Source of the DNA: an uncultured Gammaproteobacteria bacterium
Lineage (GTDB): Bacteria; Patescibacteriota; Microgenomatia; JAMCZE01
Length of the DNA stretch: 64,000 nucleotides
Assembly (NCBI GenBank): GCA_964641255.1
Contig: CAZXMM010000001.1
Span: 409,984 to 473,983, forward strand
Direction: 5' to 3'
Part shown: piece by piece, positions 33,316 through 59,223 of the stretch
How the letters are laid out: each line of letters starts with the position of its first letter
Numbering within the stretch: the first letter of the stretch is position 1
The notes under the pieces: model-generated
Seen by the model: the letters and a program-made list of their open reading frames with translations, nothing else
Databases searched by the model: none
What the model was told of the DNA's origin: nothing
Position numbers and translations under genes: made by a program

Positions 33316-34973
33316 AAAAACATTCAATTGTTTTGCTAACTTTGGTTGTGGTCTTGGGGTTGGTACTGCGCTTTTGGCATTTGGGCCAAGTGCCTCCTAG
33401 CTTGGATTGGGATGAAGCCTCACTCGGCTGGAATGCTTATTCGCTTTTAAAAACGGGGACTGATGAGTACGGGGTGAGCACTCCGTTGACCATTCGCTCC
33501 TTTAATGACTACAAGCCACCGGTTTATGTGTATGGCTTGACTTTGGTGCTCTTTTTTTTGGGACTTTCGGATTTTTCCATCCGTTTTTTATCGGCCCTCG
33601 CCGGGTCACTATCGGTGCTAGGTGTCTATTTTCTCGTTAGGGAATTAGTTCAAATTGGTAGGCGTGACAATTCTGTCACTAGCCTTCCCCTCCTATCTGC
33701 TTTGCTTCTAGCAATTTCCCCGTGGTCGGTCGGTTTTAGTCGCGTTGCCTTTGAGGCCAATCTGGCGCAATTATTTATTATTAGTGGTGCACTGTGGCTG
33801 TTAGTATTTTTGAGAAAACAAGCCTCTTGGCAGCTTTTTTTAGCACTTGGGAGCTACCTTGTTGCTTTTTACTGCTACCACAGCAGCCGCTTATTTGTCC
33901 CTTTGTTTTTGGTAAGTAGTGCACTTTGTTTACCACTTTTAAGTAAAGTTAGAAAACTACTACTCGTTGGGCTGGTGATTTTTGCCCTTTTTTTATTACC
34001 CGCTTTTAAAAGTGTGGTTACGGGGGATGGTACGGCCGCTCGGTTTGGGTCCGTCAGCATCTTTGCCCCGGAAGCCTACAAAGAACAAAAAGCTGTGCAA
34101 GAAAAAAGTTATCAGGAAGCTAAATCCCAGTCTGATCTGATCGGTAGCCTTAAAAATCACCGCTTTACTTTTTTTCCTCGGCAGTTTCTGGCCAATTATT
34201 TGTCCTATTTTGATTTTCGCTTCCTATTTTTACAAGCCGATGATAATAACCGTCATCACGCCCCCGATGTGGGATTACTGCCGCTTTGGGAGTCCCCGTT
34301 TTTAATTCTGGGTTTATTTTTTCTGTTTAGCAAAAGACCAGCCTGGAAAAGATTTCTTCTCATTTGGTTTCTTGCTGCCCCCGTTGCTGGGGCACTCGCC
34401 AGCCCCTCACCCCATGCGATTAGGTCTTTTGTTTTTTTGCCGACTTGGCAAATTATTACCGCTTTTGGGCTGCTATCAATTATCCAGATTTTATTTGGTT
34501 GGAAACGTAAACTTCTTGTTATGGCAATAGCCTGCTTAGCAATTGTTAACATTTATTATTTTGCTCATCAATATTTTATTCATGAACCTAAAGAGTATGC
34601 GGCCGATTTTCAATACGGCTATAAGCAAACTGTTCAAGTCGTAAAACCCCTTGAGCCCAACTACAAGGAAATATTTGTCACCAATTATTATGACCAGCCC
34701 TATATTTATTTTCTCCTCTATGGTGGGAGCGATCCGACTGTTAAAAATGACGGCACACTGGGAGAAAAGTATGGCAAAATTCGCTTTCTTAACTTTAGAA
34801 ATTTAAATAGTGAGGAAAAAAGACAGCTTCCCAAAGACGCTCTTTTTGTTGTCGCTCCTGGGGACGAAATTGCTCTATCGGTTGTAAAGGTTATCGTTAG
34901 GAGCCAGGACGGTAGACCACTCTTTATTGTGGGCGAGCAAGTTACCGATCTTGGATGGGGTAGTAGTCTTTAG
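33312..34973 (+). CDS. ArnT/PMT-like GT-C membrane glycosyltransferase, family B paralog 6
   Basis: Loop RFWHLGQVPPSLDWDEASLGWNAYSLLKTGTDEYGVSTPLTIRSFNDYKPPVY. Confidence 0.7.
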   Translation: MKKHSIVLLTLVVVLGLVLRFWHLGQVPPSLDWDEASLGWNAYSLLKTGTDEYGVSTPLTIRSFNDYKPPVYVYGLTLVLFFLGLSDFSIRFLSALAGSLSVLGVYFLVRELVQIGRRDNSVTSLPLLSALLLAISPWSVGFSRVAFEANLAQLFIISGALWLLVFLRKQASWQLFLALGSYLVAFYCYHSSRLFVPLFLVSSALCLPLLSKVRKLLLVGLVIFALFLLPAFKSVVTGDGTAARFGSVSIFAPEAYKEQKAVQEKSYQEAKSQSDLIGSLKNHRFTFFPRQFLANYLSYFDFRFLFLQADDNNRHHAPDVGLLPLWESPFLILGLFFLFSKRPAWKRFLLIWFLAAPVAGALASPSPHAIRSFVFLPTWQIITAFGLLSIIQILFGWKRKLLVMAIACLAIVNIYYFAHQYFIHEPKEYAADFQYGYKQTVQVVKPLEPNYKEIFVTNYYDQPYIYFLLYGGSDPTVKNDGTLGEKYGKIRFLNFRNLNSEEKRQLPKDALFVVAPGDEIALSVVKVIVRSQDGRPLFIVGEQVTDLGWGSSL

Positions 34974-34974
34974 T

Positions 34975-36693
34975 ATGAATATTTTGTCCTTACTGCGGCG
35001 TCTTTTTCCTGTGACAATCGTTGTAGTGTCTACTCTTTTGGCGCTCCAAGCTAGTATCCAAAATCCTTTTTATACCTCCCACGATGGGTTTTTGCATCTG
35101 GCCAGAATGGCGGCCTACTATCAAAGTCTTGAGGATGGTCAGTTTCCACCCCGGTGGGCCACCGGACTTAACGGCAACATGGGGTCACCTATCTTTGTCT
35201 TTATCTATCCTCTACCGTACCTCTTGGGCGCTTTAACTCACTTCTTAGGGTTAACTTACATTAACTCTTACCAGTTTTGGACAGTTGCCGGGACAGTAAT
35301 TTCCGCCATAGCCATGTACGCTTGGTTGCGGCAATCCTTTGACAGGGTAGCTAGTATGGTTGGAGCGATAGCTTATGTCTGGGTACCTTACCGGTTTCTA
35401 AACCTTTACGTCCGGGGGGCTTTTGCCGAAAATTTAGCTTTCACCCTGCCACCGCTAGTGTTGCTGTGTCTGGGTAACTTACTAAGTCGGAAGAGAAAAC
35501 TCCTGTGGTGGAGCCTATTCTCTTTATCACTGGCTGCGCTACTACTCATGCATAGTCAAATTGCGGCTCTTGCCCTGCCACTCATTATTGGGTTTGGGAC
35601 TATTCAAATGATTATCGCCAGGGACAAAAAAATAGTAGTGCCAGTGGTACTAGCTTTGGTTACCTCGTTTTTACTGGCCAGCTTTGTTTACCTTCCCGAT
35701 TTGTTTGAGCGCTCACTTGTTAACTTTGACAACAGCTTTTTCTTTTACAAAGATTACTTCGTGACTCCCTGGCAACTAGTAAGCAGTCCGTGGGGCTTTG
35801 GTTTTGATCTTCCTGGCACTATCCATGACGAAATGTCCTTTAAAATTGGCCAAACTCAAATTGCTGCCATGTTTGGATCGGCGGTGCTAATTAGTTGGCA
35901 GCTAGTCAAAAGAAAAAAGACTTTAGCTGTCGCAGCGCCTTTGCTTTTTCTGTTAGCCTCACTAGGCGCTCTTTTTTTGATGGTTGAGAGCCTGTTGGGG
36001 AAACTTATCTGGGAGTATTTACCAATTATTAAAACCATTGTTGATTATCCCTGGCGCCTTTTCTTTGTGGTGGTTTTTTCTGGGTCTTTTCTCCTAGCTT
36101 TTGTTCTTAGTCGGTTGTCTTTTAAGTATTTAATGGCCACGGTAGCAATTGTCTTTTTAATAATTTCCAATCGTAACCACACTCGAATTAACCTGCCGCA
36201 AAGTTTTACAAACAAACAGATAGAGAGCTATCGGGGTAGTGCCACAGCCGCAACGAATGAATACAAGCCCAGAGTTCACGTTAACGAGACGTTTGTAGAA
36301 AGACAATCAGCGGTTGAGGCGGTGCGGGGTGAGGTTTTTGTTTCTGGCGTCTGGCAAAGTGCTCTCGGCCTTGGTTTTACGACCCGGGCGACAATGTCTG
36401 GGCTAGTGCGAATTAACCGGTTTTATTTTCCTGAAACCATTATCAAGCGTAGCTCCCAGACCCTAGAATTGGGTCAAGATTATTTTGTGATTACTCCAGG
36501 TAAGACCGTACCAGACAACGACACCGGACTTATAAATCTCCTTGTCGTACCGGGGGAGTCTAGGTATACTCTTTCTTTTGAAGATAGTAAAATTCGTAAA
36601 GTCGGAAATATTCTTAGCCTGATAACCGTGCTGGGACTGGGTAGTATCCTGGCATTTGAACTGGCGCGGTGGGGTTTTTCTAAACGTGTATGA
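34975..36693 (+). CDS. Polytopic membrane protein, family D paralog 3 (YfhO-like / COG5617-like)
   Basis: ATG at 34975 follows the upstream TAG (the ORF is open from 34927). Loop SHDGFLHLARMAAYYQSLEDGQFPPRWATGLNGNMGSPIFVFIYPLPYLLG. Confidence 0.5.
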   Translation: MNILSLLRRLFPVTIVVVSTLLALQASIQNPFYTSHDGFLHLARMAAYYQSLEDGQFPPRWATGLNGNMGSPIFVFIYPLPYLLGALTHFLGLTYINSYQFWTVAGTVISAIAMYAWLRQSFDRVASMVGAIAYVWVPYRFLNLYVRGAFAENLAFTLPPLVLLCLGNLLSRKRKLLWWSLFSLSLAALLLMHSQIAALALPLIIGFGTIQMIIARDKKIVVPVVLALVTSFLLASFVYLPDLFERSLVNFDNSFFFYKDYFVTPWQLVSSPWGFGFDLPGTIHDEMSFKIGQTQIAAMFGSAVLISWQLVKRKKTLAVAAPLLFLLASLGALFLMVESLLGKLIWEYLPIIKTIVDYPWRLFFVVVFSGSFLLAFVLSRLSFKYLMATVAIVFLIISNRNHTRINLPQSFTNKQIESYRGSATAATNEYKPRVHVNETFVERQSAVEAVRGEVFVSGVWQSALGLGFTTRATMSGLVRINRFYFPETIIKRSSQTLELGQDYFVITPGKTVPDNDTGLINLLVVPGESRYTLSFEDSKIRKVGNILSLITVLGLGSILAFELARWGFSKRV

Positions 36694-45726: not shown

Positions 45727-46548
45727 ATGATTAAGCCGATTATCATTCGTCCTAGTGAGCCGTGGTGGAAAATTGATTTTGCCGAAATTTGGCAGTATAA
45801 AAATTTGTTGTATGTTCTGGCTTGGCGTGATGTAACTGTTAGGTATAAGCAAACAGTTCTCGGGATTCTCTGGGCAGTTTTTCAGCCGTTGGTGACGACA
45901 GGTATTTTTAGCATCTTCTTTGGAACCATCGCCAAAATTCCTTCCGATGGACTGCCTTACCCACTGTTCACTTTCATCGGCCTTGCTTTGTGGAATTTTT
46001 TTTCAAGTGGAATAGCAAATGCCAGCAACAGTCTCATTACTAACGCGAGTATAATTACTAAGGTATATTTTCCCAGGTTTTTAGTTCCCTTTGCTTCAAT
46101 TGCTACATCTGGTGTCGATTTTGCCATTACACTTTTATTAGTTCTGGTAGCAATTTTATTATATGGCTACATACCCTCGATCCAAACTTTATACGTCTTT
46201 CCCATGCTTTTAGTAATTCTTGTTTTAGCCATGGGAGGACTGGGTCTAATGACAGCAGCGATCAATATTAAATTCCGCGATGTCCGTTATATTCTGCCTT
46301 TCTTCATTCAAATTGGTTTGTACATTACGCCAATTATTTATCCATTATCTGTGATTCATGATTATAGGCGGTGGATTTTAATGTTGAATCCTATGACGGC
46401 AGTTATTGAGAGTAGCCGTGCTTTGGTTAATTCAGCCTCATTGGATTGGCTAATGATTTCGATTGGGTTTTTAGTTGCCTTGGGGTTATTTATCCTTGGG
46501 CTCTATTTATTTAGGAAAACAGAATATTTATTTGTTGATATATCCTAA
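45727..46548 (+). CDS. ABC-2 type polysaccharide/teichoic-acid exporter permease (Wzm/TagG-like)
   Basis: 273 aa with 6 TM helices. N-terminal WRDVTVRYKQTVLGILWAVFQPL is the ABC-2 family signature. Confidence 0.8.
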   Translation: MIKPIIIRPSEPWWKIDFAEIWQYKNLLYVLAWRDVTVRYKQTVLGILWAVFQPLVTTGIFSIFFGTIAKIPSDGLPYPLFTFIGLALWNFFSSGIANASNSLITNASIITKVYFPRFLVPFASIATSGVDFAITLLLVLVAILLYGYIPSIQTLYVFPMLLVILVLAMGGLGLMTAAINIKFRDVRYILPFFIQIGLYITPIIYPLSVIHDYRRWILMLNPMTAVIESSRALVNSASLDWLMISIGFLVALGLFILGLYLFRKTEYLFVDIS

Positions 46549-46550
46549 CA

Positions 46551-47768
46551 ATGCAACCTATTATTGAAGTTAAAAATCTATCAAAGAAATATAGCTTAGG
46601 TTCATATCAACCTTACGAAACCCTTCGAGATACTATAGTAAGCTTATTTAATAAGCAGGGACTACACTCTAATAAATTAAAAAAACAAGAATTCTGGGCA
46701 CTAAAGGACATTAATTTTGAAGTACAAAAAGGCGAAGTTATTGGCATTATCGGCAGAAATGGGGCAGGCAAAAGTACCCTTCTTAGAATTCTAAGTCGAA
46801 TAACGCTTCCGACAGAAGGCGAAGCAATTATGCATGGACGGGTGGCCAGTCTGTTGGAGGTGGGAACGGGATTTAGTCCCGAGCTAACAGGCCGGGAAAA
46901 CATTTTTTTAAATGGTGCAGTTTTAGGGATGGGGCGCAAAGAAATCCAACGAAAATTTCAGGCTATCGTTAATTTTGCTGAAATAGGCAAGTTCATTGAC
47001 ACACCAGTCAAATACTATTCATCAGGGATGTATACCAGGCTAGCTTTTGCAGTAGCGGCTCATCTAGAGCCCGAGATTTTGATCGTTGACGAAGTATTGT
47101 CAGTTGGGGATTTAAGATTTCAAAAGAAGTCTTTAGGAAAGATTGAAGATTTGACCCATGCGGAAGGAAGGACAGTTTTGTTTGTTAGCCATAATATGGG
47201 AGCTGTAAACCAATTATGTCGTCATACTATTCTTTTGGATGGTGGAAAAGTGGTGTTTTATGGAGCTACAGAGGAAGCCATTCGGTTGTATTCGCTGCAG
47301 AGCTTTGATAAAAACCAATTTAAAACTGTGCTTCAGGGGGATTTAGCGACTACACTAAAGCTAACCCAGATTTTTATTAACAATAAAGAGGCTAATAATC
47401 AGGTGCTATTGCCGAATCAAAGCATTGAATTTAAGGCGAAATTTAAGAGTAAGAAGAAAAACTCTAACCTAGTCATTAATTTTTCGTTATATAAAGATGG
47501 TCAGAGGCTTTTTACATTAAGTGATACAGAAAACCCGAGAGATCAACCCACAGGAAATTTTATCTCCGAATTTCAAATTCCAAGCTACTTATTACGTCCA
47601 GGTTATTATTCCATTGCCTTGGGTGGGTATCGTGTGGGCAGTGGTGAGTGGTGCTGGGGTACCGATTTAGCAGGATTTACCATAGCAGAGGTTTGGGACA
47701 GGAAAAATATACAAACTAACTTAGGAATTTTCAATCTACCCAATTATGGGCAACGAAAAAATGAATAA
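46551..47768 (+). CDS. ABC exporter ATP-binding protein (Wzt/TagH-like) with about 150 aa C-terminal extra domain
   Basis: Walker A GRNGAGKST, signature YSSGMYTRLAFAVA, Walker B ILIVDEVLSVGD. The C-terminal 150 aa (YKDGQRLFTLSD...GYYSIALGGYRV) is beta-rich, as in Wzt carbohydrate-binding domains. Confidence 0.8.
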   Translation: MQPIIEVKNLSKKYSLGSYQPYETLRDTIVSLFNKQGLHSNKLKKQEFWALKDINFEVQKGEVIGIIGRNGAGKSTLLRILSRITLPTEGEAIMHGRVASLLEVGTGFSPELTGRENIFLNGAVLGMGRKEIQRKFQAIVNFAEIGKFIDTPVKYYSSGMYTRLAFAVAAHLEPEILIVDEVLSVGDLRFQKKSLGKIEDLTHAEGRTVLFVSHNMGAVNQLCRHTILLDGGKVVFYGATEEAIRLYSLQSFDKNQFKTVLQGDLATTLKLTQIFINNKEANNQVLLPNQSIEFKAKFKSKKKNSNLVINFSLYKDGQRLFTLSDTENPRDQPTGNFISEFQIPSYLLRPGYYSIALGGYRVGSGEWCWGTDLAGFTIAEVWDRKNIQTNLGIFNLPNYGQRKNE

Positions 47769-48502: not shown

Positions 48503-49375
48503 ATGAAGATTTATATTTTGCCAGTCGATAAGGAATTGCAACCGCACAAACAACCTTTTAAGTATCCAAAACATAACAATTTTTATGGTGTTGAGCAGGA
48601 CTTTTATGCATTTTTAACTACACATCGTCAGTTGTTGACAACTGATGAAAATAAGGCTGATTGGCATTATCTACCGATTTATTGGACACGACGACATCAT
48701 AATAAAGGTACTAGCAATGCGGCCCTTAAAGAATTGCAAGAAAAAGTTGACAAAATCATAGTAAACTCAAAAAAAACCTTTACCATTTGCCAGTATGATG
48801 ATGGACCTATGGTCAAATTAGGCAAAGGACAAGTTTTTCTATCCTCAAGAAAGTCGTACGTTGGCCTTGATATTCCTTTATTATCCGCGACTCATCGGTT
48901 TCCGCTGTTTAAACAATCAAAAAAGTATTTAGCTTCCTTCGTTGGAAGATTCTCAACACACCCTATACGACAGAGAATGGCTGAAAAGCTGAGTAACAGA
49001 CCTGGTCTTTTTATTAAAGACGGTGAGATCTCAGAAGGCGACTTTGTTAAGTTGATTCTAAGATCATATGTTTCGCTTTGCCCCCGAGGCTATGGGGGAA
49101 GTTCTTTTAGATTTTTTGAATCTCTGCAGTTAGGTGTTGTTCCTTTAATGATAGGTAATGTAGATACGAGACCCTTTAAAGAGTTTATTGACTGGAATGC
49201 TATTTCTTTTTTTGCTCGCGACGAAAACTCTGCCCTAGCTATTTTAGAAAAAGCAAATCTTAAACAGCTACTCAATATGGGTCAGAGAGCGCTGTCATTT
49301 TATCGATCAGATCTAGACTATGGCAAATGGTGTAAATACGTTATTATGGAACTGAAAAGGAGACAGTCTCAATAG
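48503..49375 (+). CDS. Exostosin-like (GT47 family) glycosyltransferase
   Basis: C-terminal LCPRGYGGSSFRFFESLQLGVVPLMI matches the exostosin-family consensus C-P-x-G...S-x-R-x-x-E-x-x-x-x-G-C/V-x-P-V. Confidence 0.5.
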   Translation: MKIYILPVDKELQPHKQPFKYPKHNNFYGVEQDFYAFLTTHRQLLTTDENKADWHYLPIYWTRRHHNKGTSNAALKELQEKVDKIIVNSKKTFTICQYDDGPMVKLGKGQVFLSSRKSYVGLDIPLLSATHRFPLFKQSKKYLASFVGRFSTHPIRQRMAEKLSNRPGLFIKDGEISEGDFVKLILRSYVSLCPRGYGGSSFRFFESLQLGVVPLMIGNVDTRPFKEFIDWNAISFFARDENSALAILEKANLKQLLNMGQRALSFYRSDLDYGKWCKYVIMELKRRQSQ

Positions 49376-51010: not shown

Positions 51011-51741
51011 AAGGTGTCAGCGTGGTTATCCCCACTTATAATCGGGAAAAGTTTTTAACGGCAACCATAAATAGTGTACTTAAACAGACTGTCCCCGTTT
51101 TGGAGATTCTGGTTTGTGATGATGGGTCAATGGACCACAGTCGTCAGGTGATAAAGAAAATTGGCAGTACAAAGGTCCACTGGATTGCTGGATCCCACAC
51201 CGGATTGCCAGCTGTAGCAAGAAATCGAGGTATTGAACGGTCAAAAGGGGAGTTGATTGCATTTTTGGACAGTGATGATACCTGGCTACCAGAAAAAATG
51301 GCCAGGCAACTACCTTTTTTTGACGACCCCAAAGTACTAGGGGTAAGCGCGAATGCTTTACGGATGGTGAAAACTATTGAGAGTGGTCGTGTTATCGTTG
51401 GAAACAATAGCAATCTTTCTGTTGCTTCTCTTTTGTTCCAAAATTCAGTCATCTGCAGTTCAATGGTGGTTCGTCGATCTGCCTTGGAAGCTACTGGGGA
51501 CTTCTCTGAAAAAAATTCACTACGAGGATTTGAAGACTATGCCCTTTGGCTTAGGGTGGCAGCCCTTTTTCCGATCAGCTTTGTTGCCGAGCCGCTAGTT
51601 CGTTATCGTGACGAGTTTCAAGACAGTCTGCGTTATGAGTCCGAAAGGGATGTTGTGAAGCAAAAACTTGAAGTATTAAAAAATTTTCTTCCCTGGCTAA
51701 TTTACCATTTTCCATTAATTATTTCATACCACATGCAATGA
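51007..51741 (+). CDS. GT2 family glycosyltransferase
   Basis: GTG start. VSVVIPTYNREKFL, LVCDDGSMDHS and FLDSDDTWLPEK. Confidence 0.75.
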   Translation: MKGVSVVIPTYNREKFLTATINSVLKQTVPVLEILVCDDGSMDHSRQVIKKIGSTKVHWIAGSHTGLPAVARNRGIERSKGELIAFLDSDDTWLPEKMARQLPFFDDPKVLGVSANALRMVKTIESGRVIVGNNSNLSVASLLFQNSVICSSMVVRRSALEATGDFSEKNSLRGFEDYALWLRVAALFPISFVAEPLVRYRDEFQDSLRYESERDVVKQKLEVLKNFLPWLIYHFPLIISYHMQ

Positions 51742-53450
51742 TTGAGATTGGATTATTGGTTGTGGCAACAGGTAAATATATTCAATTTGTCGATCCTTTA
51801 TGGAAGTCAACTAAAAGGTACTTTCTTAAGCAACGCAATATCAGAGTAACTATGTTTGTTTTTACTGATTCTGATACTGTTCCAGCTGGAACTAAACGCC
51901 TGTTTTGGGAACATCGCGCCTTCCCCTTCGCCACTCTTCTTAGGTACCATGTGTTTACAAAGTACCAAAAGACCCTAAAGAAGATGGACTACCTCTTCTA
52001 TTGCGATGCTGACATGGAATTTGTTTCACTAGTAGGCGAAGAGATTCTTGGTAAACGAGTCGCCACCCTTCACCCAGGCTTTTATACTAAAGCTCGAAAA
52101 GATTTTACTTATGAAAATAATTCTAAGTCGACTGCCTATATTTCTCCTGATCAAGGGAAAGCGTATTATTGCGGTGGTTTCAATGGGGGAGAGGTAAAAG
52201 AATTTTTGAATATTGCCCGGATTCTAAAAAGGAATATTGATAAAGATTTGAAAAATGGCATTATCGCTTCACATAACGATGAAAGCCACTATAATTGGTA
52301 TCTCGCTAAACACCTTCCCACGTTGGTTCTTTCACCCTCATACTGCTATCCAGAAGATCTCTTACCAGCGGTTCGGGCGAAAGATCTGAAAAGCGGGATT
52401 AATAAGTTAATTTGGTTTCCGAAGCAACTGTTGGAACTAAAACCAAAATTAATCGCCAGAAGCAAAGACCATAGCAAAATTCGGTATACCGGGATTCGAC
52501 TGTTAATCGAAACACTTATCCAGTCTAAAGAAGTTCTTTTCCTGAAGGGTTTTACTATTCTTAACAGGGTTAGAGTTGAATGGGTTAGGCTAAAATGGCA
52601 CTACTTAAGATTGAAGGAGCAAAGCTATCGTAATTATCTTTTGCAACCGCCTATAAAGGTTATTCAGGTCTCACAAAATAGCGCTGCTAACAGAATGCTC
52701 CTCGTCACAGTGGCCTTTAATTGCGTCTGGACTATAGAGGCGCAAATAGATGCTTTAAAAAAGAACCTTCAGGATCCTTTTACTCACATAATAATTGATA
52801 ATTCTAGTGATAGTGCTAGACGATCAGAAATAGAACAAGTGGCTCGCACAAAGGGGGTGGGTTACATCTCTTTGCCGAAAACACCTTCACATATTTCACC
52901 GAGCATGTCTCATGGACTAGCTCTCAATTATGCTTGCAACTGGACTAGTAAGCACCTTGCGAAGTATGTAGTAATTGGCTTTTTGGATCATGATATTTAT
53001 CCATTCAAGTCGACAAATCTATTTCCAATTATGAAAAAGCAGCCCTTTTACGGCCTCTTACAAAATAGAGAAGAAAAGTGGTACTTATGGCCGGGCTTCA
53101 TGTTTTTTAATAGAGATTTCAGCAACAGTAAGCAAATAAATTTTCTTCCTCAAAATGGTCTTGATACTGGTGGAAGGAATTGGGAATCTATCTACCGCCA
53201 CATAGAAAAATCTTCAATTGAATTTCCCCAGCAGTTTTACGTATCCCTCAGTGACTATAAAAAGCTTCGCAATATTAATGCATTTCCTAAAATACCAATT
53301 TCCAAAAAGAATCAGCTAGTGAAAAAAGATCAATTAATAGAGATAATAGATAGCTGGGTGCATGTGTTTAATGCGTCGAATTGGCGAAAAGCAAATGATA
53401 AGGAAAAAGAAGTTAAAGAATTCTTACTATGGCTAAACAAGCATTCATAA
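51738..53450 (+). CDS. Two-domain glycosyltransferase: N-terminal GT6 domain (ABO blood-group / alpha-1,3-Gal(NAc) transferase family) fused to a C-terminal GT-A (GT2-like) domain
   Basis: N-terminal half aligns motif by motif with mammalian/bacterial GT6: FVFTDSD, DYLFYCDADMEFVSLVGEEILGKRVATLHPGFY, FTYENNSKSTAYISPDQGKAYYCGGFNGGEV and NDESHYNWYLAKHLPTLVLSPSY. C-terminal half (from about aa 300) reads LLVTVAFNCVWTIEAQI...IIIDNSSDSARR...YVVIGFLDHDIYPF, which looks GT-A. Confidence 0.8.
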   Translation: MIEIGLLVVATGKYIQFVDPLWKSTKRYFLKQRNIRVTMFVFTDSDTVPAGTKRLFWEHRAFPFATLLRYHVFTKYQKTLKKMDYLFYCDADMEFVSLVGEEILGKRVATLHPGFYTKARKDFTYENNSKSTAYISPDQGKAYYCGGFNGGEVKEFLNIARILKRNIDKDLKNGIIASHNDESHYNWYLAKHLPTLVLSPSYCYPEDLLPAVRAKDLKSGINKLIWFPKQLLELKPKLIARSKDHSKIRYTGIRLLIETLIQSKEVLFLKGFTILNRVRVEWVRLKWHYLRLKEQSYRNYLLQPPIKVIQVSQNSAANRMLLVTVAFNCVWTIEAQIDALKKNLQDPFTHIIIDNSSDSARRSEIEQVARTKGVGYISLPKTPSHISPSMSHGLALNYACNWTSKHLAKYVVIGFLDHDIYPFKSTNLFPIMKKQPFYGLLQNREEKWYLWPGFMFFNRDFSNSKQINFLPQNGLDTGGRNWESIYRHIEKSSIEFPQQFYVSLSDYKKLRNINAFPKIPISKKNQLVKKDQLIEIIDSWVHVFNASNWRKANDKEKEVKEFLLWLNKHS

Positions 53451-54070
53451 ATGTAACATACGAATCTCTTGTCACACCACCACTTGCTATTGGTGCGTGG
53501 ATACGAAAGGATTTTCCTGGTTTTGATAGGGATTACTTGGCAATCCATTGTTTAATCAGAAAGTATCAGCCCAAAACTTTCCTTGAAATTGGAACAAGCA
53601 CGGGGTTGGGAACCAAAGTAATTTGTACAGCTATTGGGATTAGGAAAGCCCATTGGTGGAATTTATTTGGTTCCCACGACGTATCAACACCAAAGGTTTT
53701 TTCAATCGATGTACCTCCAGGTACTGATCCAACAATTATTTATCCCGCAAAAGAAGACGGTCACCCAGATAAGACAGGAAAATACTGCAAATTTCCCTTC
53801 ACGCAGCTATTTGGCGACTCCCAAACATTTAATTTTAAACCGTACTATCCATTAGATGGTTGGTTCATCGATGGCAAACATAACTTTGAATTTGCTAGTA
53901 AGGATACAAGACAGGCTTTGAAGGCTAAAGCTAAGATAATTATCTGGCATGATATGCAAATCGAAGATGTTGCTCGTGCTGTAGAAATCGTTATGAGAAA
54001 GCAGAAACGATATAGCTGTTATCGTGTTGCGCAAACTCGAATCGCTTTCGCTGTACGCAAGATATCATAA
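53429..54070 (+). CDS. Class I SAM-dependent methyltransferase (CmcI/TylF-like O-methyltransferase fold)
   Basis: FLEIGTSTGLGTKVI (motif I), DGWFIDGKHNFE and IIIWHDM. Confidence 0.55.
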   Translation: MAKQAFINVTYESLVTPPLAIGAWIRKDFPGFDRDYLAIHCLIRKYQPKTFLEIGTSTGLGTKVICTAIGIRKAHWWNLFGSHDVSTPKVFSIDVPPGTDPTIIYPAKEDGHPDKTGKYCKFPFTQLFGDSQTFNFKPYYPLDGWFIDGKHNFEFASKDTRQALKAKAKIIIWHDMQIEDVARAVEIVMRKQKRYSCYRVAQTRIAFAVRKIS

Positions 54071-54957
54071 TGATTATTGTCAAATTAGTGGGTGGCCTGG
54101 GAAACCAAATGTTTCAATACGCGACCGCCCGCGCTCTTGCCGAAAGACACCGTTGTGAATTAAAGCTAGATACTAGTTGGTTCCGCAAGCCTGGATCAGA
54201 TACCCGCCGTTCTTACGGTCTAAGAGTTTTCAATACCGTTAAGGCCCAAGCCACGAAACGGGAAATTAATGCTGTCAAACATCGGAGCGGAAACAAATTG
54301 GACCGAATATTAAGAAGCCATTTTCGGGGTTTTTTTCCGTTGCGTAAAAGCTATTTCTTTGAAGAAAGCGCTCTTCATTTTAGCCCGGAAGTCCTTAAAC
54401 TGACCGATAATTCTTATTTGGAAGGCTTCTTTCAGTATTTGGCGTATTTTCAATCGATTGAAAAAATATTGCAGGATGAATTTCAGTTTATTAAGCAACC
54501 CAACAAGAAAAACAAGCTAATTTTAGATAAAATAGAGATACAAAATTCAGTGTCTGTCCATATCAGGAGAAAAGACTATATTTCTAATAAAAATTATCGT
54601 AGTTATTTTGCCCATCCTAGTAGGCTATATTATAAAAAGGCTATGGAAATGATTAATCGAAAAGTGCCCAGTCCTGACTTCTATATTTTTTCTGATGATA
54701 TACCTTGGGTAAAAAAGCATTTTAAAAATAATCATAACATGCATTTTATTTCCCATAATAAAGGGAAAAACGATTTTGAAGACATGAGACTTATGCAAAG
54801 CTGTAAACACAATATCACTGCCAATAGCTCCTTTAGCTGGTGGGCAGCATGGTTGAACCAAAATCCTCACAAGATCGTAATTACCCCCCGTAAATGGTAC
54901 CAAGACAAATTAGCCGAAATGACTGGGAAGTTTCCTCCTAATTGGACAAAGCTATAA
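54070..54957 (+). CDS. GT11 family alpha-1,2-fucosyltransferase
   Basis: Diagnostic GT11 motifs: MIIVKLVGGLGNQMFQYATARALA, SVHIRRKDYIS and ANSSFSWWAAWLN. Confidence 0.85.
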   Translation: MIIVKLVGGLGNQMFQYATARALAERHRCELKLDTSWFRKPGSDTRRSYGLRVFNTVKAQATKREINAVKHRSGNKLDRILRSHFRGFFPLRKSYFFEESALHFSPEVLKLTDNSYLEGFFQYLAYFQSIEKILQDEFQFIKQPNKKNKLILDKIEIQNSVSVHIRRKDYISNKNYRSYFAHPSRLYYKKAMEMINRKVPSPDFYIFSDDIPWVKKHFKNNHNMHFISHNKGKNDFEDMRLMQSCKHNITANSSFSWWAAWLNQNPHKIVITPRKWYQDKLAEMTGKFPPNWTKL

Positions 54958-55771: not shown

Positions 55772-56848
55772 ATGAATCGTTTTAAACCAGTAAAACTATC
55801 GGTAATAATGCCTGTATATAATGGTGCACTTTATCTACGAGAATCTATTGATAGCGTTCTTCGTCAGACCTTCACAAATTTTGAATTCATCATTATTGAT
55901 GATGGTTCTACTGATAAAACACAAGAAATTGTTGAGTCTTATTCTGATTTACGAATTAAGCTAGTAAAAAACTCTAAGAATTTAGGAATAGTTGACAGCC
56001 TGAATATTGGTCTGGTTAAAGCAACTGGTGAGTACGTCATCAGAGTAGACGCCGATGATATCTGTGTTAGAACTCGTTTTGAGAAGCAGGTTAAGTTTAT
56101 GGATGGTCACCCTACAGTGGGTGTTTGTGGAAGTGCCATAAGGATTTTTTCTAGAATTCCTGTGATTGGTATGACAATTGTAAAGCCTGTTAGCCATCGT
56201 GAGATCGTCTCGGAAATGCTTTTTCGCAATGTTATCCAACACCCAACTGTCATTTTGAGGAAAAACCTTTTCCAAAAGTACAAGCTTCGCTACCGGAGTT
56301 TATATCCACATGCGGAAGATTATGATTTGTGGTCCCGGGCCGGTAGGCTTTTTGATTTGGCAAATCTTCGTGAAGCCTTGTTGTATTACCGCTATCATTC
56401 AAAATCGATAGGCGCTACTTCTAATATCGTTCAACAAGCTAATGTTAGACAAGTCAGGCAAGAATATTGGAAATCATTGGGCATCAAACTTGATCCCGAC
56501 GAAATTGCTTTATTGCACAGTGTCTGCGACCTGTCTGTTGCTCCGATAGACGAGTTTACAGCTGCAAAGGTAGGAGCAGCCTTGTTAAGCTTTCAGTCCC
56601 AAGTGAATAAAAAAAATCTCTTTCCGCCGAAGTTTATTTCTAAACATACCTCCAAGCAGTGGTACGCTTTTTGTGCCAAACTCTCCACTCTTGGCCTAGT
56701 GGCCTGGAGATTATATTGGCAGTCTCCTCTTAGCAAAGCGGCAGCTTTGAGCATTTCAGATCGATTAATTTTCCTAATGCATTGTTCATTAAAAATGAGC
56801 GACTTTACTCTCCAAAGGAAACTTGCCAGACTGATTGCCGGTTGGTAG
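55772..56848 (+). CDS. GT2 family glycosyltransferase with about 120 aa C-terminal extension
   Basis: LSVIMPVYNGALYL, FIIIDDGSTDKT and RVDADDI. Confidence 0.8.
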   Translation: MNRFKPVKLSVIMPVYNGALYLRESIDSVLRQTFTNFEFIIIDDGSTDKTQEIVESYSDLRIKLVKNSKNLGIVDSLNIGLVKATGEYVIRVDADDICVRTRFEKQVKFMDGHPTVGVCGSAIRIFSRIPVIGMTIVKPVSHREIVSEMLFRNVIQHPTVILRKNLFQKYKLRYRSLYPHAEDYDLWSRAGRLFDLANLREALLYYRYHSKSIGATSNIVQQANVRQVRQEYWKSLGIKLDPDEIALLHSVCDLSVAPIDEFTAAKVGAALLSFQSQVNKKNLFPPKFISKHTSKQWYAFCAKLSTLGLVAWRLYWQSPLSKAAALSISDRLIFLMHCSLKMSDFTLQRKLARLIAGW

Positions 56849-56857
56849 TCTCAATAT

Positions 56858-58033
56858 ATGAAAATACATACGATAGAGAAAATTGGCTCCGAAAACAGTT
56901 TACGGCTGCAATTTCCCATAACCTTTGACGGCAAGGAAAGGAACTTCCCTACTGCTTTGTATTATCAAATAGAGAAAAAATTTGAATCCTTGTTAAGTTT
57001 AAATAGCGACAGTGCTCTGGTGGCCATGCTCCTTTTGGCAATGAACCTTAAAGAGGATATCTTTGTGGAAGGATCCGTTTCAGAACAATTGATTAATAAT
57101 TTGCTGAAATATCAAGATATTGTTCATGAATGGTTTCCCAAAACCTTCTACAAAATAAAAATATCTGCCGAGCACATTGTTAGCGAAACTAAATTGAAGA
57201 ACAAAGCCGTGGGGATGGGTTTCTCTGGAGGTGTAGATTCCTTCTACACTCTTTGGAGCCATCTTGCCCCGCAAGAAAAAGATGCTTCAAAGAGGGTGAC
57301 CCACGGGATCTTTGTTCATGGTTTTGATTTTTCTCTGCCTAAAAGAGCCAGCTATGATCGCGCCTATGAGGCCTACAAGGTAATGCTTGAAAGCCTTGGC
57401 CTTACTCTAATTGGTGTGGAGACTAACATCAGGCAGTTCACTGATTATTACAGTTGGGAGATGGCCCATGGCTCCGCCCTGGGAAGTTGTGCCTTACTGT
57501 TTGAAAAAGTTTTTGGCACTTTTTACATTGCCTCGTCAGATGTTCCAGCGGCACTTAAGCCACTTGGCTCGCACCCCGACCTTGATCCACTGTTATCTAG
57601 CAATCAGATGACGGTAGTTCATGATGGATTGCAAAGTTCAAGGGTAAAAAAGATAAAAGCCCTTATCACCTGGCCACTCACTTACGATAATCTTCGGACT
57701 TGTTGGAGAAATCAGGACGGAGTGAAGAATTGTGGGCGGTGTGATTATTGTCTGCGGGTAATGGCAATCCTGGAAGCATTTGGAGTTTTAGGAAAGTACA
57801 CAACCTATCCTCCCTCGTTCTCTTATAACAGCTTAATAAATGCTCAATTTGTCTCAAAAAATCGCCAAATAATTGCCGACGAGATTATTGCTCTGGCTAA
57901 GAAGAATCATAATGAAAAACTCGCCGGTGCAGTAAAACGGGCTAAAGAGCGTGGTGCCCTGCTTTTTAAAATCAAACCACTTACTGACTTTGTTGACCAG
58001 ACGATTTATCACCTTATGCATAAGTACCAATGA
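56858..58033 (+). CDS. QueC/ExsB-like PP-loop ATP pyrophosphatase with C-terminal Cys cluster and about 110 aa N-terminal extension; putative sugar amidotransferase/amidoligase
   Basis: PP-loop GMGFSGGVDSFYTL (SGGxDS). C-terminus TCWRNQDGVKNCGRCDYCLRVMAILEAFG matches the QueC zinc-site pattern C...CGxCxxCxxR...G. Confidence 0.5.
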   Translation: MKIHTIEKIGSENSLRLQFPITFDGKERNFPTALYYQIEKKFESLLSLNSDSALVAMLLLAMNLKEDIFVEGSVSEQLINNLLKYQDIVHEWFPKTFYKIKISAEHIVSETKLKNKAVGMGFSGGVDSFYTLWSHLAPQEKDASKRVTHGIFVHGFDFSLPKRASYDRAYEAYKVMLESLGLTLIGVETNIRQFTDYYSWEMAHGSALGSCALLFEKVFGTFYIASSDVPAALKPLGSHPDLDPLLSSNQMTVVHDGLQSSRVKKIKALITWPLTYDNLRTCWRNQDGVKNCGRCDYCLRVMAILEAFGVLGKYTTYPPSFSYNSLINAQFVSKNRQIIADEIIALAKKNHNEKLAGAVKRAKERGALLFKIKPLTDFVDQTIYHLMHKYQ

Positions 58034-59223
58034 CAATCATTCTTGACTGTGGTAGTTATCATTTGCAAAACCTCGGTGATATCGCCATGCTCCAAGTGAC
58101 TGAGCAGCAGATGAGAAAGTTTTGGCCCGAAGCAGGGATCTATGTTCTGACTCTCGTCCCCAAACGGTTGGCAGAATTTTGTCCACTAGCTTTGCCCTTG
58201 TCCACAGCGAGCCGTTATTTGTGGTTGGAACAACACCTCAAACGCATCAGCCATAAAGAACAGTGGGAGCAATTTCTTCATACCGCTGGTGCTCAAATTA
58301 CGGCTAAACCTGAAGAATTTAACCAAGTTTTTGCAAAGACCGATGCGGTAGTAGTCAGTGGCGGGGGCTTTATGAACGACATTTTTATCGATCACGCCAT
58401 TGATGTTTTAGATATGCTTGGGGAAGCCCAAAATCAGGGAAAGTGTACCGCGATGTTTGGTCAAGGATTTGGACCAGTGACTAATCCTGCTTTACTTGAG
58501 CGGATGAACCAGGTATTACCCCGTCTGGCAGTAGTAGGGCTACGGGAGAAATTATCCGGTCGTTCCTTAGTTAAAAATTTGGGGGTAACCGATCCCCAGA
58601 TTTTTGTGACCGGGGACGACTCTCTGGCTTTGGCTCCAAACAGAGAAAAACCAGGGGAGAGTATTGGGGTCAACTTGCGACTCTCCTACTATTCTGAGGT
58701 GACCCATAATCAAAGGCGAGCGGTAAAAGAAGCTGTTTTGGCTTTAACCGGGGAACTAGAAACTAAACTCGTTCCCTTGCCCATCTCTTTTTACCCGCAA
58801 GAGTCAGATGTTAAGAGTTTAACGTCTCTGTTTCCGGCCCAACTCTATCGCTACCCACTAGAGCGGGACGAAGAGTCGACTGTTCAATCAGCCTTGGCGC
58901 GCGCAGCTAGCTGTCGTACTGTTATTACTGGGAGTTATCATGGGGCGGTGTTTGCCCTGGCTTGCGGGGTTCCAGTAGTGGCACTGTCAGGCTCAACCTA
59001 TTATTTGGATAAATTTTTGGGTTTGGCAGATTTGTTTCCCGAAGGAGCGGTTCAAATTGTAGGTTTGGCCGATCGTTTTTTGCGTCTAAATCTGCAGTCG
59101 GCGACCAGAAAGGCCTGGGCTAAAGCCCATCTGCTAAAAGAGAAAATTTTACAAAGCGCAAAAGAACAAGCCCAACTGAGAGACCAAGCATATGAGAGGT
59201 TTTACGCTATACTTGAGCCATGA
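58030..59223 (+). CDS. Polysaccharide pyruvyl transferase family protein (CsaB/WcaK-like)
   Basis: N-terminal YHLQNLGDIAMLQV, then DAVVVSGGGFMNDIF. Both are characteristic of the PS_pyruv_trans family. Confidence 0.5.
   Translation: MTIILDCGSYHLQNLGDIAMLQVTEQQMRKFWPEAGIYVLTLVPKRLAEFCPLALPLSTASRYLWLEQHLKRISHKEQWEQFLHTAGAQITAKPEEFNQVFAKTDAVVVSGGGFMNDIFIDHAIDVLDMLGEAQNQGKCTAMFGQGFGPVTNPALLERMNQVLPRLAVVGLREKLSGRSLVKNLGVTDPQIFVTGDDSLALAPNREKPGESIGVNLRLSYYSEVTHNQRRAVKEAVLALTGELETKLVPLPISFYPQESDVKSLTSLFPAQLYRYPLERDEESTVQSALARAASCRTVITGSYHGAVFALACGVPVVALSGSTYYLDKFLGLADLFPEGAVQIVGLADRFLRLNLQSATRKAWAKAHLLKEKILQSAKEQAQLRDQAYERFYAILEP

Follow-up and report, generated by a model that had tools for sequence, protein, structure and literature searches.

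The window analyzed in this study is a stretch of 64,000 nucleotides (nt) of contig CAZXMM010000001.1 and consists of one very large glycan locus. Near its end, an ATG-started open reading frame (ORF) at 56858..58033 of the forward strand encodes a PP-loop enzyme of 391 amino acids (aa) with a QueC-type fold, here assigned to an unannotated family (PPL). It is followed on the same strand by the gene of a polysaccharide pyruvyl transferase of 397 aa (58030..59223; PF04230, PS_pyruv_trans, E 3e-31) and preceded, again on the forward strand, by a GT2 glycosyltransferase gene (55772..56848; PF00535, E 1e-37), which agrees with the placement given in the initial annotation of this DNA. The main new finding is the conserved partnership of the PP-loop family with polysaccharide pyruvyl transferases, a conserved and sometimes fused functional partner that the initial annotation had missed.

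Gene and predicted structure of the PP-loop protein

The ORF is a genuine gene and no chance ORF, since a word-indexed homolog search recovered at least 494 relatives and an exhaustive profile search at least 10,149 representatives at 50% identity (5,694 of them with E ≤ 1e-30), and since the AF2 model of the protein reached a pLDDT of 94.7 (pTM 0.91). The stop codon of the GT2 gene (TAG, 56846-48) is separated from the ATG of the PP-loop gene by 9 nt, and the stop codon of the latter overlaps the ATG of the pyruvyl transferase gene in an ATGA at 58030-33. The gene had been described as translationally coupled to its neighbors. The tight junctions on which this was based are present, and the downstream overlap is compatible with coupling, which is possible but not proven by it.

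Four parts were distinguished in the protein, all encoded on the forward strand. An N-terminal alpha/beta domain (aa 1-112; 56858..57193), with conserved M62, S75, and W92, appears in the models and in the alignment. It is followed by the PP-loop ATP-pyrophosphatase motif F-S-G-G-V-D-S-F-Y at aa 122-130 (57221..57247), which comes after a strand formed by residues 117-121 in the AF2 model. A QueC-type Cys4 motif and putative zinc site, C282...N291-C292-G-R-C295-D-Y-C298-L-R with the spacing C-x9-C-x2-C-x2-C, was located at 57701..57751, and a helical extension makes up the C-terminus (aa ~323-391; 57824..58030), its last part being a long basic helix by DSSP of the AF2 model. The N-terminal extension of about 110 aa is real, as the PP-loop begins at residue 122 here and at residues 9-11 in QueC. 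Sequence, AF2 model, and the Pfam matches of the neighbors together bear out what had been said of the PP-loop, the QueC-type cysteines, the extra N-terminal domain, and the position in a glycan locus.

The best solved fold found with Foldseek for the AF2 model was Bacillus subtilis QueC (3bl5) with 208 columns, a TM of 0.60 normalized to QueC, and 15% identity. Further matches were TtuA, NcsA, GMP synthetase, and TilS, and Cap9 was matched at a TM of 0.59. An SGGxDS loop opens a Rossmann-like alpha/beta domain, which places the protein among the PP-loop ATP pyrophosphatases (AANH-like). The N-terminal 112 residues, modeled alone, reached a pLDDT of 94.9 and form a confident separate alpha/beta domain, for which a fold search against the PDB returned no match (best TM about 0.3). 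In the predicted structure, a QueC core bearing the Cys4 motif lies between an alpha/beta extension at the N-terminus and a helical one at the C-terminus.

Conservation was assessed in an alignment of 42 family sequences and in a set of 96 family ORFs. Residues F122, G125, D127, D157, D243, R280, C282, N291, C292, C295, and C298 are invariant in the alignment. All 96 family ORFs keep the four cysteines, G125, D127, and N291, and S123 is present in 86 of them. The motif set proposed for the family consists of the N-domain, FSGGVDSFY, D157/D243/R280, NCGxCxKC, and an adjacent or fused PF04230 gene, and the window protein carries all of it except K297.

The 391-aa protein is recognized by no curated library. 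Its score with the Pfam QueC model (PF06508) was 12 bits at a cut-off of 22, covering aa 271-300 only, and the best QueC match among the 42 family members, with E 0.0011, was likewise below threshold. NCBIfam contained no family matching it at E up to 10, PADLOC returned 0 matches, and PF00733 (Asn_synthase) did not match it, although two of the 42 members match PF00733 weakly. PHROG 1550 (QueC-like) matches at aa 268-311 only. Sequence and profile searches of the PDB returned no significant match; what they did return, QatC and a nitrile synthetase, aligned over the PP-loop or the Cys motif only, with QatC as the top profile match (E 0.18). No phage homologs of the family were found by tblastn. 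At least 575 GTDB species genomes from many bacterial phyla and some archaea encode a family member, which mostly carries the name "hypothetical protein" in the sources that name it. The family is an unannotated variant of the PP-loop/QueC-fold superfamily with neither a Pfam nor an NCBIfam model. Weak, sub-threshold matches to DUF6395 (PF19932) were seen in 17 of the 42 members, and in P0124, the only case with positions shown, the match spans aa 263-296, about the region of the Cys motif; DUF6395 may be a related uncharacterized family.

The protein has the SGGxDS PP-loop in common with QueC, and neither has a fused glutaminase. The zinc motif of QueC is C(x)8CxxCxxC (PMC13329287), so that the first spacer is one residue longer in the 391-aa protein, where the metal site is putative. 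QueC is a single domain of about 220-230 aa in a queD/queE/queF setting, while the window protein has 391 aa, extra domains, and a glycan/pyruvyl-transferase setting. A comparison with a shallow QueC profile by hhalign aligned only 22 PP-loop columns at a probability of 6%. The QueC substrate motifs YxQxHxxE and VPxRN, and the regions of the Y131/Y189-type residues essential for CDG, were recovered in the protein neither by hmmscan nor by hhalign; judged by topology, the stretches FVHGFD and VETN may be their equivalents. No QueC-like ORF was found in the window or in the 84 loci sampled below, and the PP-loop gene is the only PP-loop ORF of the window. A canonical housekeeping QueC, the outcome that the initial annotation had named as its refutation, was rejected given the sub-threshold Pfam match, the alignment confined to the PP-loop, the missing substrate motifs, the lack of any QueC or second PP-loop ORF in the window, and the glycan neighbors.

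Association with polysaccharide pyruvyl transferases

Genomic context was sampled in 84 loci with neighborhoods of about 12 kb, and partners were counted by Pfam scans and a broader family hidden Markov model (HMM). The window and three long contigs each have a PF04230 gene directly after the PP-loop gene. PS_pyruv_trans was the commonest direct neighbor in the Pfam scan, occurring downstream in 20 of 77 and upstream in 7 of 76 cases. With the broader HMM, it was found within about 6 kb in 46 of the 84 loci. The two genes are within 300 bp of each other in 29 loci; they are co-directional in 23 of these, often with a stop/start overlap. A dehydrogenase of the UDP-glucose/GDP-mannose type occurred in a single locus. 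The coupling is scattered across the whole family and not limited to a clade (same-state fraction of nearest homologs 0.57, compared with 0.50 expected). In P0125 and P0127, the PP-loop family domain and the pyruvyl transferase form one polypeptide.

The pair was also identified, independently, in the RefSeq annotation of other genomes. On plasmid p4 of Azospirillum brasilense MTCC4039 (L084:7863-10248), it consists of D3869_RS27260 and RS27265 and forms an isolated two-gene module, set among efflux, multicopper oxidase, and molybdate-transport genes and far from other glycan genes. In Gloeothece PCC 7424 it is part of an exopolysaccharide locus, and in Priestia aryabhattai one pyruvyl transferase is followed by two PP-loop copies.

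The phosphoenolpyruvate (PEP) site of ketal-pyruvyltransferases includes the equivalents of R148, H308, R306, and K328 of CsaB (PMC10435577). The window partner keeps the R148 and H308 equivalents and has S-Y-H in place of the R-L-H found in most pyruvyl transferases. This S-Y-H subgroup comprises the partners in the window and in loci L003, L012, L023, L064, L072, and L075, all of which directly adjoin a PP-loop gene.

Twelve loci contain the PP-loop gene as tandem paralogs in two to four copies, and the catalytic motifs are intact in nearly all of these copies. Four tandem paralogs with all motifs intact occur in a Chloroflexi metagenome-assembled genome (MAG; L005:5914-10926), and three with intact motifs, followed by a sulfotransferase, in a Woesearchaeota MAG (L006:224-3978). 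Proteins of about 800 aa proved to be fused tandem duplicates of the family with no other Pfam domain. Other fusions of the family involve FemAB/Acetyltransf_6, GNAT, AsnB-like, and GT2 domains. P0235 (662 aa) and P0219 (625 aa) are fusions to a class-A beta-lactamase-like domain (PF13354, E 3e-36) and a GNAT domain.

An AsnB-like protein is encoded near the PP-loop gene in 12 of the 84 loci, in 9 of them in a full-length form of about 600 aa. These neighbors of about 602 aa have an intact SGGLDS and start with "MANF" in place of the glutaminase "MCG", with Ala for Cys; members were seen in L003 (6164-7975), L023, L036, L039, L047, L048, L051, and L068. They form a family separate from the PP-loop family, apparently AsnB paralogs with a dead glutaminase that are confined to glycan loci of this kind. 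A glutamine or ammonia donor, which the initial annotation had proposed to look for, was not found next to the family; the AsnB-like proteins were rejected as ammonia donors because they lack the glutaminase Cys. In an Akkermansia sp. MAG (L081:4018-6981), a 988-aa ORF joins an AsnB-like part of about 600 aa, which has SGGADS and lacks the glutaminase Cys, to a PP-loop family domain, with a pyruvyl-transferase-like ORF of 849 aa 27 nt away on the opposite strand. An apparent homology of the PP-loop family to its AsnB-like neighbors was traced to this single fusion ORF, and BLASTP against an adjacent AsnB-like protein gave E 0.026 over the PP-loop only.

Proposed chemistry and alternatives

The invariant or nearly invariant PP-loop, D157, D243, R280, and Cys4 are, as far as residues can tell, the signature of an active enzyme. 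The protein is likely an active ATP-pyrophosphatase that works as a module with the pyruvyl transferase, and the pyruvate group on cell-surface sugars is probably what it modifies, in a reaction not described so far. In PP-loop enzymes, the oxygen of a carboxylate or carbonyl is adenylated, and a nucleophile then displaces the adenylate. Tentatively, we propose that the enzyme acts on a pyruvate ketal carried by a lipid-linked glycan, adenylating the ketal carboxylate and making an amide of it. At the cytoplasmic face of the membrane, the pyruvyl transferase would first use PEP to equip a lipid-PP-linked glycan with a 1-carboxyethylidene group (pyruvate ketal). The PP-loop enzyme would then adenylate the new carboxylate with ATP, releasing pyrophosphate, and a nitrogen nucleophile, either free ammonia or an amine or amino acid, would displace AMP to give the amide. 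Such a product would neutralize or extend the pyruvate group. We infer the substrate carboxylate, the nucleophile, and the order of the steps; no glutaminase partner is present.

This amidation of the ketal carboxylate is the most economical model because the pyruvyl transferase is the only carboxylate-installing enzyme consistently tied to the family. Ketal-pyruvyltransferases are cytoplasmic in their action, using PEP to modify lipid-PP-linked precursors (PMC6801904). The papers on dioxanopeptin and carenaemin describe pyruvyl transferases whose acceptors are diols of lipids or secondary metabolites; there the carboxylates stay free, and a PP-loop partner is absent. Pyruvate is a more likely source of the carboxylate than a uronic acid, as a UDP-sugar dehydrogenase was found in 1 of the 84 loci and nowhere in the annotated part of the window. 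QueC-type chemistry on a sugar was suggested in the initial annotation, and on a glycan substituent such chemistry, with adenylation of a carboxylate or carbonyl followed by nitrogen attack, remains the most reasonable activity.

Several known systems offer parallels to this scheme. By analogy, the enzyme probably follows the same logic as QueC, with adenylation of a carboxylate and subsequent nitrogen attack. QueC itself adenylates a carboxylate and forms an amide with free ammonia (PMC13329287), and in Cap9 and QatC the same fold joins a carboxylate to a protein amine (PMC13329287; PMC13279940). In QatC, too, the QueC core with its Cys4 zinc site is preceded by an alpha/beta extension and followed by C-terminal helices. 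Its extensions are needed for function, with the C-terminal helices holding the partner protein (PMC13279940), and by the same analogy the N- and C-terminal extensions of the window protein may have a membrane or partner role. QatC and Cap9 differ in that they show no significant sequence match and no detectable homology of the extensions, and their partners are QatB or a CD-NTase, whereas the partner here is a pyruvyl transferase. A 2026 survey of PF06508 distinguished QueC, QatC, Cap9, LarE, WbpG-like, and GMPS-like clusters and no glycan/pyruvyl-transferase group (PMC13329287); the PP-loop family falls outside that survey because it is below the PF06508 threshold. The AsnB-type amidotransferases of glycan loci (PF00733, WbpS-like) also adenylate carboxylates with a PP-loop, but the 391-aa protein has no glutaminase domain. 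In the MurA/MurB plus MurC system, a sugar receives a PEP-derived carboxylate, on which an ATP-dependent ligase then forms an amide. The analogy to the Mur ligases is one of logic only, as their folds are unrelated, they are ADP-forming, and they act on a nucleotide sugar and not on a lipid-linked glycan. Searches of the literature returned nothing relevant on QueC or PP-loop proteins with pyruvyl transferases, QueC-like proteins with polysaccharides, amidated pyruvate ketals, or DUF6395.

A number of observations weigh against ketal amidation by this pair. No pyruvyl transferase lies within about 6 kb in 38 of the 84 loci, which are heterogeneous and mostly non-glycan in setting. Neither a conserved partner nor a hidden small-ORF partner was found in these solo loci, and given their mixed settings the family may have another or a broader substrate. 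The subtypes of the pyruvyl transferases do not map in any obvious way onto the PP-loop clades. The window partner lacks the arginine equivalent to CsaB R306 and Pvg1p R337, and the window protein has Y297 (codon 57746-57748) where 95 of the 96 family ORFs have K, as the sole exception (CDYC instead of CEKC). In addition, the proposed product is without chemical precedent, since a 2019 review of pyruvylated glycoconjugates contains no amidated pyruvate ketal (PMC6801904).

The carboxylate could instead be the C6 carboxylate of a uronic acid or of another acidic sugar, with the pyruvyl transferase as a merely co-located tailoring enzyme. Such a uronamide synthase, as suggested in the initial annotation, would share its class of chemistry with QueC and AsnB and would fit a glycan locus, and in L001 a UDP-glucose/GDP-mannose dehydrogenase is indeed encoded 3 kb upstream. 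We consider it unlikely, as in neighborhoods of about 12 kb one locus with a dehydrogenase stands against 46 with a pyruvyl transferase, the fusions involve the pyruvyl transferase and not dehydrogenases, and no uronic-acid genes lie near the isolated Azospirillum module. The WbpG/WbuX/PseA amidotransferases (TIGR03573; QueC-family cluster 5), among which the protein had also been filed, are likewise stand-alone enzymes of 300-400 aa in surface-polysaccharide loci, where they activate the acetamido carbonyl of N-acetyl sugars to form acetamidino groups. The WbpG cluster is characterized by an SGGxDSxY P-loop variant and a CxxC(x)6CxC Cys motif (PMC13329287), of which only the SGGxDSxY variant is common to the 391-aa protein. 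WbpG has a CxxC(x)6CxC and a YDC motif, another motif order, and other conserved neighbors, while the Cys motif here is C-terminal and of the QueC type. Together with the empty NCBIfam search and the lack of recurrent aminotransferase or N-acetyltransferase neighbors in the sampled loci, this makes acetamidino formation very improbable and leaves the WbpG/WbuX filing unsupported. Equally hard to credit is a role outside glycans, be it conjugation of proteins or small molecules as in Cap9/QatC defense or canonical preQ0 synthesis. The QatC-like layout, QatC as the best (non-significant) PDB sequence match, and the 38 solo loci in mixed settings would suit it. Against it stand the searches of PADLOC and of phages, both without a match, the solo loci without a conserved partner, an N-domain unlike anything solved (QatC included), the absence of the QueC substrate motifs, and a window with no QueC-like ORF. 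A reading as a defense system was rejected on the PADLOC and phage results and on neighbors that are glycan genes.

The nucleophile could also be an amino acid or a diamine, in which case tandem paralogs would extend a short peptide stepwise on the pyruvate carboxylate in a Mur-like manner. Arrays of two to four paralogs, nearly all with their motifs intact, the single pyruvyl transferase with two PP-loop copies in L002, L064, and Priestia, the fusions to FemAB/Acetyltransf_6, GNAT, and the class-A beta-lactamase-like domain, and the use of a peptide amine by the QueC fold in Cap9 and QatC all point in this direction. An enzyme that is normally a dimer and here forms hetero- or pseudo-dimers would, however, account for the duplicates just as well, only one copy is present in the window, and no amino-acid-supplying genes are consistently nearby, so that a peptide ligase also seems unlikely. 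Somewhat more broadly, a glycan chemistry never described before, with ATP-dependent derivatization of the ketal carboxylate beyond a simple amide, is rather improbable; examples would be the stepwise attachment of amino acids or peptides by tandem paralogs or a QueC-like route in two steps, from the carboxylate through the amide to a nitrile (1-cyanoethylidene sugar). Finally, the PP-loop enzyme might act earlier or on the donor side by activating pyruvate or another 2-oxo or carboxylic acid, or might modify the acceptor, with the partner transferring something other than plain pyruvate from PEP. The S-Y-H in place of R-L-H in the subgroup of the window partner, by which an arginine implicated in PEP binding is lost, would be in line with this, as would the activity of PS_pyruv_trans enzymes on non-sugar diols (PMC12964715). 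Many directly adjacent partners nevertheless keep the canonical D-R-L-H, and the window partner keeps the equivalents of the experimentally critical R148 and H308, which leaves this a quite improbable explanation.

Pyruvate ketals are major charge-bearing and recognition epitopes of bacterial surface glycans that serve, for example, in the anchoring of S-layer homology (SLH) domains, the rheology of xanthan and succinoglycan, and the capping of O-antigens. If ketal amidation is true, many glycans described as pyruvylated would be further edited, with changes in charge, antigenicity, and recognition by phages and lectins, and the QueC scaffold, whose repurposing for defense has recently been demonstrated, would gain a glycan branch. 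Chemistry beyond the amide would mean a widespread hidden layer of cell-surface modification across about 10,000 sequence clusters in Bacteria and Archaea. The chemistry of the family is what we infer, and a defined function would re-annotate thousands of genes, because neither Pfam nor NCBIfam models the family and its members mostly go by "hypothetical protein". The isolated pair in the cultivable A. brasilense makes the question directly testable in a convenient system.

Other genes of the window

Window annotation covered the ORFs of 34.9-64 kb and two upstream ORFs. Glycan genes in the window encode several GT-C-type membrane proteins and GT2, GT4, GT6, GT11, and GT47-like transferases, accompanied by a Wzm/Wzt ABC exporter, methyltransferases, a DUF2142 protein, and a flippase. 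None of the annotated ORFs encodes a UDP-sugar dehydrogenase. The GC content of the window is 42.9%, and no tRNAs were found in it.

The Wzm/Wzt genes lie at 45727-47768, and no Wzt_C match was seen there. In L001 and L003, the PP-loop/pyruvyl-transferase pair occurs together with Wzm/Wzt exporters that have Wzt_C carbohydrate-binding domains. Given these Wzt_C exporters, the modified pyruvate could be a chain-terminating cap that the exporter recognizes.

A 570-aa protein at 51738-53450 has an N-terminal GT6 domain (E 8e-43) and a weak GT2-like region. About 0.6 kb past it, with one gene between, a GT11 gene of the alpha-1,2-fucosyltransferase family (E 6e-35) was found at 54070-54957. Prokaryotes seldom have GT6, which together with GT11 forms the enzyme pair behind histo-blood-group A/B-like epitopes. 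Another family, exostosin/GT47, is mainly eukaryotic, and a domain of this type (E 5e-20) was found in the 290-aa protein encoded at 48503-49375.

PF10131 ("PTPS_related"), matched at 34927-36693, is a membrane-protein family and does not indicate QueD. From about 5666 to 36693, the window contains a run of about 15 ORFs of 480-800 aa each. Three sampled ORFs of this run match the GT-C-type or membrane families YfhO, PMT_2/GtrII, and PTPS_related, and membrane glycosyltransferase-like paralogs seem to have expanded to an unusual degree here.

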